A DNA stretch of 4,201 bases, taken from positions 1 to 4,201 of the IMG/VR virus record IMGVR_UViG_2675903661_000013. One strand, 5' to 3'. Below, piece by piece: positions 1,840 through 4,201 of this stretch. Position numbers: made by a program. Within the stretch, counting starts at the first letter, position 1; every line of letters begins with the position of its first letter. The stretch is from a virus. Lineage: Duplodnaviria > Heunggongvirae > Uroviricota > Caudoviricetes.

Positions 1840-4201
1840 TGAGCTGTTGTTCTTTTCAGCGCAGGTAACTGGCAGCTCTGCATACTTGTTATATTGCGCA
1901 TAAAAAACCGGGGAGCAGGGCGTTACTCCCCGGTAAACATACAGACCAGACAATGATACCACACTGCCAGTTATTATTATCATGACATAAGTCAGCGCAG
2001 GGAATATTAGTGCATGCACATGTCTGGTTTCTTTGATCTCACAACGCTTTTTTTGTGAAAAGAAAAAAGATGAGGCACTGAAATCACAGTTTTATTTAAA
2101 TGAGTGGACGTTGATGATTATTAAGAGTTTTAAGCTATACACCCCTGAAAAATCTGACGTGCCGGGTGCGATGTACCTGAAATCAGTAGACGGCAGGGAC
2201 TGGTACGAAAGCCAGTCATTATTCGCGGCAGACACGCTGAAGCTGGTTTATGACAGTAACGGTATAATCACCAGCATAAGTAAGGATGTCTCTATGCTGT
2301 GGCCGGTAAACCAGAGTGTGGCAGAGGTTGCAGATACGGAAGAAAACCGCAAAGCTGACATCTCGGGGCGCTGGGGTTTTGACGGGGAGAAAATCACGGA
2401 CCTGCTGACCGCGGAGAAAGCGCGCGGGATGAAGGGCGATGAAATTAACGCGTGGCGTAATGCGATGGAGGCGGCGAACTACACGTTTGAGCACAATGGC
2501 CGGAAATGGGACTACGGGAAGTCAACGCAGACGCGTCTTGAGCCATCGGTGGCGGCGGCGAAAGCGGGGAAACTGCCGGAGGCGTTTTTCTGGACGGATG
2601 CGGAAAACAATGATGTGGAGGTGACAGCAGAAGAGCTTATAGCGTTGAGTGAAGCGGCAGGGCAGGCGATGTTCACCAAAGGGATGGAAATCCACGTTCG
2701 CCAGCGCACCATGAAGAAAGAGCTGGAAAAGCTGACCAGTGCGGATGAGATACTGGCATACAGGGTTGGCTGGGCACAGGAGTAATTGGTGGAAAAGAGG
2801 GATTGTCCCTTTCTGTTTTTACTGAAAGAGTCGTAATAATTACGCAGGGAAATATCATGGCTGAACTAAACAGTTAAATTTTGATGATATTGTGATGTTG
2901 CTCAGAAATTACAGTGTAAGCAGATGTGAAATATCCAGCGGCATGAGATCAGTTTTTTATTTAGTATTGCTCTGCCTTGTGCTCCAGTATTTGGAGTAAA
3001 GGTGTAAAAAATACACTAAGATATTTCCTAAAAATTAAAATTAAATTTGTGGGGTTTTTTAGGAATATCCTCATGGGTGCCGAAATACATCAGATTTTCT
3101 TTATTCATCCGATGTATTTCGGTTTGTTTGTATACAAATAAATTCATGAGGAATCATACATGGATAAGTCTTTATCACGAAGTGTTATTTCCGTTGTTAT
3201 TGGCGGTATTTTATTTGGTGTAAGCGCTGGCGTTCTGGCTCAGGATGCAGCGGAGAATAAGCTTATCGCCTCAGGGAGTATCCCAGAAAATACAGATCTT
3301 TCTGCTTCAGCTCGCGCGGATGGAGAGATTGCGCTAGCTGTTGGTACAGGGGCCAGCGCGGATAAAAAAATTGCAACATCAGTGGGATCATGGTCTGCAG
3401 CACGAGGACAGCAAAGTGTGGCTTTAGGTGGGGGAACATATGCTTATGCAGATGCATCTACAGCCCTGGGAAGCATTGCATTTGTTGATAACACGGCTAC
3501 ATATGGCACGGCAGCAGGTAACCGAGCCAAAGTTGATAAAGATGCAACAGAAGGTACTGCGTTAGGGGCAAAGGCAACAGTAACAAATAAAAACAGTGTT
3601 GCATTAGGAGCTAATTCACGCACAACCCGTGACAATGAGGTTTATATCGGTTATGAAGCAGAGCCGGGTAAGGCTTATAAAACCCGGGTGCTTGGTGGTC
3701 TGAGTGACGGTACTCGTCCCTCAGATGCTGCAACCGTTCGTCAGGTTGACCGTGTAAAAGACAGTGTTGAGCAACTGGCTCAGGATACGAATACCCGCCT
3801 TGTGGTTGAAGCGAAAAAGTCTCGTGAATATACAGACTCCAGAACGACAGTTGGTGTTAACTCCGACGGAACCCTGACCCGTGCAGAAGGAGCCAGCAAA
3901 ACCCTGGCTGTTAATGATGGGCTTGTAGCTTTGTCCGGCAGAACAGACCGTATTGATGCTACTGTTGGTAGTGTTGACCGCCGGGTTACTAAAAATACAC
4001 AGGCGATTCAGTCCACTTCCCGTCAGTTGCAGGAGCACAACACACGTCTGAACAGTCATCAGCGTCAGATTAATGAAAACCACGAAGAGATGAAACGTGC
4101 GGCAGCCCAGAGCGCAGCGCTGGCAGGTCTTTTCCAGCCGTACAGTGTGGGTAAATTCAACGCCACTGCTGCCCTGGGGGGGTACAGTGATAAACAGGCT
4201 G

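Follow-up and report, generated by a model that had tools for sequence, protein, structure and literature searches.

A conserved palindrome upstream of an Eib-type prophage adhesin gene as a candidate helix in a leader RNA predicted to mask the ribosome-binding site

Shiga-toxin-producing and commensal E. coli carry prophage genes for Eib proteins, adhesins that confer immunoglobulin binding and chain-like adherence. What acts on such a gene from the DNA directly ahead of it is the question raised by the locus described here, a stretch of 4,201 nucleotides (nt) that forms the right end of a lambdoid E. coli prophage (positions 1 to 4,201 of IMG/VR virus record IMGVR_UViG_2675903661_000013; hereafter the window). 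An Eib-type adhesin gene begins in the window, and a near-palindrome stands just upstream of its ribosome-binding site (RBS). The original prediction for this palindrome, made from the sequence alone, was that a protein bound to it on DNA would occlude a promoter or transcription start. The accessible Eib literature describes no promoter, transcription start or cis-element for any eib gene. The explanation that we favour, at a probability of roughly 0.55, is that the eib mRNA leader folds into a conserved RNA three-way junction, predicted to hide the RBS, with the palindrome as its helix P3. Two features serve as reference points:

3160..4201, + strand: 5' part of a gene for a YadA-like trimeric autotransporter (Eib type), which leaves the window at its end; the RefSeq coding sequence WP_000361566.1 starts at the equivalent of 3160
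3148-3152, + strand: Shine-Dalgarno (SD) sequence GAGGA, preceding the adhesin ATG at 3160

A repeat finder recovered the near-palindrome TTTGTTTGTATACAAATAAA at 3123-3142, with arms at 3123-3132 and 3133-3142 that are 90% complementary and separated by a 0-nt spacer. Its perfect 12-base-pair (bp) core, TTTGTATACAAA, occupies 3127-3138, and the sole non-Watson-Crick pair is G3126/T3139. Coordinates, arms and core of the 20-bp element were thus as originally described; so was its setting, as it abuts a first dyad (3080-3095 with 3107-3122) and ends 5 nt 5' of GAGGA. To gauge how readily such an element arises by chance, the 374-nt AT-rich intergenic region was shuffled 5000 times with its dinucleotide composition preserved. 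Of the shuffled sequences, 14% had a perfect palindrome of 12 bp or longer, and 2.3% had a palindrome without a spacer that matched at 18/20 or better; in the whole window, 0.14 matches to the 12-mer with up to two mismatches were expected. By itself the palindrome is no more than mildly improbable; it is conservation that gives it weight.

Upstream regions of eib genes were collected by blastn against 5,426 complete E. coli genomes, which gave 136 places in 55 genomes, and by protein-anchored retrieval from viral contigs and from metagenome contigs, the last two sources being blind to the motif. At least five lineages carry a homologous leader: the window type, lineage ii, the eibA type (lineage iii), lineage iv and lineage v. 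Upstream regions of 272-440 nt are 49-63% identical between lineages, and all five have TTTGTATACA(A/G)A with its first base at -33 or -32 relative to the ATG. Among 24 distinct leaders the longest invariant run is TTTGTATACA, at 10 nt, the runner-up being the 3-nt ATG start codon. The alignment of homologous upstream regions, suggested with the original prediction as a check, showed the palindrome core to be kept in five lineages at a fixed distance from the ATG. The view that the adhesin gene has in this palindrome a genuine cis-regulatory element under selection is supported. It is very hard to believe that the palindrome arose by chance in AT-rich DNA or is a core promoter element, in either case without a function of its own; the 14% of shuffles with a perfect 12-bp palindrome and the resemblance of the downstream ATAAWTT to a -10 element speak for that explanation, but a 10-nt invariant run persists at a fixed ATG distance across lineages of about 50% identity. 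In addition, the -10-like hexamer is lost in lineage v (TCATTT), which retains the palindrome, and a start there would remove the conserved SD sequence.

Two exceptions to this conservation were found. The closest relative of the window type (L092) reads TACGTGTGCAAAT, its left arm broken by four substitutions, with the gene and the rest of the leader intact. In the distant L103/L170 type the palindrome position is occupied by GATTGTACATGG, and a copy of the motif, GTTGTATACAAA, lies at -241; in L103 these are at 2660-2675 and 2457-2468, respectively, the latter lying about 210 nt 5' of the palindrome position. As an observation in its own right, L092:2426-2547 looks recombinant, being lineage ii-like left of the palindrome and window-like right of it, with the four substitutions clustered within the palindrome. 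An exact-pattern scan of 2.9 million viral contigs returned the 18-mer 46 times. Seventeen of these matches are eib leaders, and the remaining 29 lie in unrelated, mostly low-GC contigs, consistent with chance; a wider regulon was rejected on this outcome. The motif was not found in distant adhesin homologues of other genera, which matched only in the C-terminal anchor and so had no leader to set beside that of eib.

Does the palindrome then coincide with a promoter? No sigma-70-like promoter overlapping it was found in the window by a simple scan or by a position-weight scan. In the eibA type only, a good promoter, TTGAAC-17-GATAAT, holds the palindrome in its spacer; these hexamers are not conserved in lineages iv and v, and a start from this promoter would remove the conserved AGG of the SD sequence. 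A sigma-70 promoter core at the palindrome was rejected because the hexamers are not conserved and the aligned hexamer of lineage v lacks A(-11). A candidate -10 element is placed about 110 nt upstream of the palindrome:

3012..3017, + strand: candidate -10 hexamer TACACT (TATAGT, TAATGT or TACAGT in other lineages)

The T, A and final T of this TAnnnT are kept in all lineages that share the leader, and an invariant AAG comes next. Transcription would start about 7 nt past the hexamer, at about 3024, which would place the palindrome some 100 nt downstream of the start.

The + strand was folded from this putative start, and the core of the predicted structure comprises 112 nt. Its elements are as follows:

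3025..3065, + strand: P0, a 5'-proximal hairpin (3025-3034 with 3056-3065), which would stand at the extreme 5' end of the mRNA; the equivalent is annotated as a stem_loop in AF151091
3068..3078, + strand: 5' strand of P1 (anti-SD), UCCUCAUGGGU, pairing with 3142-3152
3079..3123, + strand: P2, the first dyad of the original prediction (3079-3091 with 3111-3123 and 3093-3095 with 3107-3109), with a U-rich 11-nt loop
3124..3141, + strand: P3, the palindrome (3124-3130 with 3135-3141, including G3126·U3139), with the loop UAUA at 3131-3134
3142..3152, + strand: 3' strand of P1, AUUCAUGAGGA, which contains the SD sequence GAGGA (3148-3152)

In the window leader, P1, P2 and P3 are predicted to form a three-way junction with no unpaired junction nucleotides. 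The minimum free energy is -35.5 kcal/mol over the 112 nt (z = -5.6), and 0 of 200 shuffles were as stable. The invariant core TTTGTATACA corresponds to 3127-3136 within P3, and the outermost bases of the 20-bp dyad, T3123 and A3142, go to P2 and P1 rather than to P3. P1 of the window contains five G-C pairs. A search of Rfam 15 with the window and four other lineages gave no match at E <= 1. An intrinsic terminator or attenuator made of the first dyad and the T-rich left arm was also considered and rejected, as a scan found no terminator-like site at 3079-3145; the U-rich tract adjoins the P2 stem in the window lineage only.

The same junction plan was predicted independently, by single-sequence folding, in six lineages with different P1 and P2 sequences. 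P1 is formed by AUAUCCUG with CAGGAUAU in lineage ii, by AUCCUG with CAGGAU in lineage iv, by AUACCCU-AUGAAA with UUUCAUAGGGUAU in lineage v and by UCCUCAU with AUGAGGA in L092. In the eibA type it is formed by GCUCAUG with CAUGAGC, and the start codon is masked rather than the SD sequence. Fold z-scores were -5.2 and -5.0 in lineage ii, -5.1 in v, -2.9 in both iii and iv, -1.5 in L092 and +0.3 in L103. The RBS and the segment that immediately precedes P2 were scored for complementarity against shuffles, giving P = 0.013 for the window, 0.004 and 0.0055 for lineage ii, 0.014 for iv and 0.0005 for v; the complementarity was weaker in iii (P = 0.13) and L092 (P = 0.17).

Covariation was counted with a covariance model built on the predicted structure, to which 27 leaders were aligned (25 distinct). 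Two-sided changes occur in 17 of the 34 pairs. The cells with such changes number 74, against 28 in shuffles (0/500 reach the observed value) and 13-26 when the partners are slid by 1-3 columns; one example is ACA/UGU in P2, which becomes GUG/CAC in lineage v. Since P1 and the first dyad covary between lineages, RNA helices on the + strand, in a region transcribed from further upstream, fit these data. In lineage ii, where the helices depend on G·U pairs, the strands differ: folding gives -30 to -33 kcal/mol for the + strand and only about -19 to -20 for the - strand.

P3 itself is paired in 89.7% of cells in this alignment, and its departures from perfect symmetry bear on the question of DNA or RNA. 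Position +-5 is U·G in lineages ii and iii and otherwise UA; position +-7 is G·U in the window type and v, U·G in iv and A-U in ii and iii. No mirror-image C·A or A·C deviation was seen in P3 of any lineage, the independent events being few (at least three). All of the deviations can be accommodated as G·U pairs on the + strand, so an RNA helix is favoured, as a homodimer on DNA would impose no such bias; we regard this strand bias as suggestive. The failure of the scans to find an overlapping promoter in the window, the covarying RNA helices and the G·U type of the deviations all speak against the DNA-bound protein, occluding a promoter or transcription start, that was first proposed. The accompanying idea of layered control by two dyads fared better in part, since joint regulation of the adhesin gene by both elements is supported and only the promoter-occlusion mechanism is not. 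Phase regulation, also suggested at the time, found no counterpart in repeats or invertible segments within the window.

The main alternative is nevertheless a DNA site, in which the palindrome would be the operator of a dimeric factor acting as a roadblock, at a looping site or in proximal promoter control. The RcsB/NarL-like product of ORF-156 (an open reading frame, ORF), IbrB or a host regulator could be that factor. The dyad symmetry, perfect over 12 bp and extending up to 20 bp, is conserved across orthologous upstream regions, and ten core bases, including the central TATA, are invariant, which is superfluous for an RNA hairpin. Two lineages have further partial copies some 240 nt upstream, L103 with GTTGTATACAAA at -241 and the eibA type with CCGTATACAAAT at nearly the same distance, -244; the eibA type also has the palindrome in the promoter spacer described above. 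A candidate regulator gene also adjoins every eib gene, and its recognition helix is invariant:

L001:7613-8086: ORF-156 (157 aa; ORF-156A of P-EibA; PHROG 6585), about 90 nt past the equivalent of the eib stop codon

The AlphaFold2 model of the ORF-156 product (predicted local distance difference test score 88) has a receiver-like domain and a four-helix LuxR-type helix-turn-helix, and its best Foldseek matches are RcsB, DesR, FixJ and EvgA. The acidic pair customary past strand 1 is apparently absent. Homologues were found in E. coli only, with identity down to 46-49% among the aligned full-length homologues. The protein is predicted to be a regulator of the RcsB/NarL/FixJ type.

Other observations tell against an operator. 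No conserved promoter was found over the palindrome in the window or in lineages iv and v, and the palindrome lies well past the likely start. The half-site deviations are not strand-symmetric, being without exception of the G·T or T·G type that keeps the + strand RNA paired and never of the mirror-image type. No copy of the motif occurs 5' of ORF-156 or elsewhere in the 12 kb of L001, and ORF-156 is also found beside distant adhesins that lack the palindrome. A text search of the literature for an E. coli regulator with the palindrome as its consensus found none and returned mainly Gateway attB5 cloning sites, an artefact. We consider the operator possible but doubtful. Two segments, TAAGATATTTCCTA (3017-3030) and TAGGAATATCCTCA (3058-3071), resemble the RcsAB box consensus, TAAGAATATTCCTA, and TAAG..A..TCC.A is invariant in the eight leaders of one alignment (A1). 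These segments coincide with the P0 arms and with the 5' strand of P1, at or past the putative start, and an RcsAB box reading was set aside.

Several points weigh against the RNA junction as well. P3 alone is marginal, at -0.8 to -3.2 kcal/mol; as a stand-alone RNA hairpin it was rejected as too weak, and it makes sense only inside the junction, where it takes up the room between P2 and the SD strand. Covariation was counted on an alignment fitted to the model and hence leaning towards it. The column-wise consensus of RNAalifold recovers P3 only (-1.25 to -1.35 kcal/mol), as the register of P1 and P2 shifts from one lineage to another. In lineage v and in the window, the - strand is predicted to fold no less stably than the + strand. 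L092 lacks P3 through its four substitutions yet retains P1, P2 and an intact gene. Pairing also leaves the invariance of the UAUA loop and of all six core stem bases unexplained, and the extra GTATACAAA copies in lineage iii and L103, about 240 nt upstream and outside the putative transcript, are a better fit to a DNA site. Finally, transcription of 3024-3160 is itself inferred. Published complementation with eibG in a plasmid used 168 bp of upstream DNA, where vector promoters could have contributed.

If the palindrome is P3 of an RBS-masking leader, the following course of events can be proposed. The leader would begin at about 3024 and form the P0 hairpin first and then the P1/P2/P3 junction. 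P1 would pair the anti-SD strand (3068-3078) with the SD region (3142-3152) and keep the RBS closed, so that translation would be low by default and opening of the junction would need a factor. A trans-acting protein or RNA might engage the invariant P3 or the anti-SD strand, locking or unlocking the junction; the fold would in this way control translation. The sequence of P3 is invariant while P1 and P2 drift and covary, from which we infer that P3 may also be a sequence-specific docking or nucleation site for a candidate trans-acting factor. A more specific proposal is that P3 docks a dedicated factor that unlocks the closed RBS and thereby closes the gap between the IbrAB island and Eib production; the factor would bind or chemically modify the invariant GUAUAC hairpin, in RNA or in DNA. 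IbrA resembles PAPS-reductase/PP-loop enzymes and IbrB resembles ParB, a pairing reminiscent of nucleic-acid-modifying systems. We rate this proposal as improbable, although if true it would mean that a virulence adhesin is governed by a new type of regulatory handshake between prophage and host.

Could the leader instead respond directly to temperature? EibG protein has been reported at the detection limit at 23 °C and at its highest at 37 °C in static culture. An RNA thermometer, with AU-rich P3 and P1 helices that come apart at 37 °C to expose the SD sequence, would explain the absence of EibG at 23 °C and accord with the published rise of EibG output with temperature, with the sequestered SD sequence and with a P3 made of A-U and G·U pairs only. 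However, predicted pairing of the SD sequence or AUG barely shifts between 20 and 60 °C in any lineage. Where P1 masks the SD sequence, its mean unpaired probability is 0.001-0.3 over this range; the shift in SD unpaired probability is <0.1 in the window, L092, iii, iv and v and <=0.14 in lineage ii (L002), and the masked AUG of the eibA type has an unpaired probability of <=0.06. With the SD sequence or AUG expected to remain paired throughout 20-60 °C, the fold resembles a lock and not a thermometer. The five G-C pairs of P1 in the window, the lack of a FourU or ROSE-type motif in the leader and the published variation of eibG mRNA with growth conditions also argue against a thermometer, which appears quite unlikely.

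Translation of the leader itself offers another route to an open RBS, through a short ORF that ends in the palindrome:

ATG at 3073 to TAA at 3139-3141, + strand: leader ORF MGAEIHQIFFIHPMYFGLFVYK, 22 codons, with AGGA 8 nt before the ATG and the stop in the right arm of the palindrome

The palindrome would then matter as the end of this ORF, with terminating ribosomes opening P1 and coupling translation to eib. The AGGA ahead of the ATG is in keeping with a translated ORF, and similar ORFs exist in L092, iii and v, the stop UAG overlapping the eib SD sequence in iii and v. Lineages ii and iv, however, retain the fold and the palindrome and have no such ORF, which rules it out as a general explanation; the palindrome is read in a different frame in the window than in iii and v, and the SD sequence and ATG of the leader ORF are themselves buried in P0 and P1. 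Little probability can be given to this alternative.

RBS-masking leaders are well known as a kind, and the eib leader itself has no Rfam model. One parallel is the mom gene of phage Mu, an accessory gene of a prophage. Its RBS is enclosed in a stem, and a separate small hairpin just upstream binds the specific activator Com, which opens the stem. The eib leader would likewise combine a masked RBS with a small hairpin directly upstream, but the two sequences are not similar, the surroundings of eib showed no Com-like zinc-finger gene, and binding of a factor to P3 is a proposal. In the rpoS leader an upstream segment pairs with the SD sequence and is opened by DsrA, RprA and ArcZ with Hfq, a case of anti-antisense activation. 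A long 5' leader, an SD sequence paired upstream and expression tied to stationary phase or growth conditions are common to both, whereas the eib structure is a compact three-way junction with no Rfam hit and no candidate small RNA was identified for it. An 11-nt identity between the 5' arm of P2, ACATCAGATTT (3086-3096), and the DsrA segment ACAUCAGAUUU was put down to probable coincidence, being same-sense and not complementary, with no Rfam DsrA match.

RNA thermometers such as FourU, ROSE and Yersinia lcrF sequester the SD sequence of a virulence or adhesion gene in AU- and G·U-rich structure. The eib leader resembles them in SD sequestration and in the temperature dependence of Eib, but its fold is predicted to be too stable to melt below 60 °C and their signature motifs are absent. 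With operators of the LuxR/NarL type, for example the RcsAB box, the palindrome shares dyad symmetry of 12-20 bp, invariance and an adjoining RcsB-like gene; it differs in having no recognisable promoter at the window site, in its strand-asymmetric G·U pattern and in matching no known consensus. Junction and palindrome alike are not described in the accessible Eib literature, and AF151091 annotates only the P0-equivalent stem-loop and a terminator.

The leader would represent a testable cis-element in at least five eib lineages, with an invariant hairpin that is a natural target for a regulator. Constructs with at least about 100 nt of native upstream sequence would carry the block and shorter ones would not, which could explain differences between native and recombinant expression.

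The remaining features of the window place the adhesin gene in its prophage:

112-1842: collagen-repeat tail fibre gene
3' end at 2785: DUF4376 tail-fibre-assembly-like gene
2796..2822, + strand: terminator-like hairpin and T-run (stem 2796-2812, tail CTGTTTTTAC), directly 3' of the tail-fibre-assembly-like gene

The phage late operon ends at the hairpin at 2796..2822, and the eib moron region begins there. The spacer between the DUF4376-like gene and the adhesin gene measures 374 nt and is AT-rich, at about 30-35% GC. Positions 2786-3260 are 100% identical to several Shiga-toxin-producing E. coli chromosomes, on which the gene is annotated as a YadA-like family protein and is followed by the conserved 157-aa ORF and a dinI-like gene, with prfC adjoining. 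As the layout matches both these chromosomes and that around eibA in the P-EibA record AF151091, we assign the gene, from sequence, to the eib-type immunoglobulin-binding adhesin morons. Like the lambdoid morons bor and lom, and eibA in P-EibA, it lies past the tail-fibre genes in AT-rich DNA with its own terminator.

Some minor observations concern the surroundings of the leader. The tail-fibre region 5' of the moron differs between the window (112-1842) and L001 (3695-5329) despite the 100% identity over 2786-3260, which fits mosaic module exchange around a fixed moron. L120:740-872 looks recombinant, with a lineage iv leader joined to a lineage ii start region just 3' of the SD sequence. 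The window type, L092 and lineage ii share a block of about 24-30 nt at 2917-2946, AAATTACAGTGTAAGCAGATGTGA, without difference bar one flanking base, within flanks of about 60% identity; it precedes the ATG by about 215-240 nt. At the position aligned to this block the eibA type has GTAACCGTATACAAATT, a partial copy of the right half of the palindrome.

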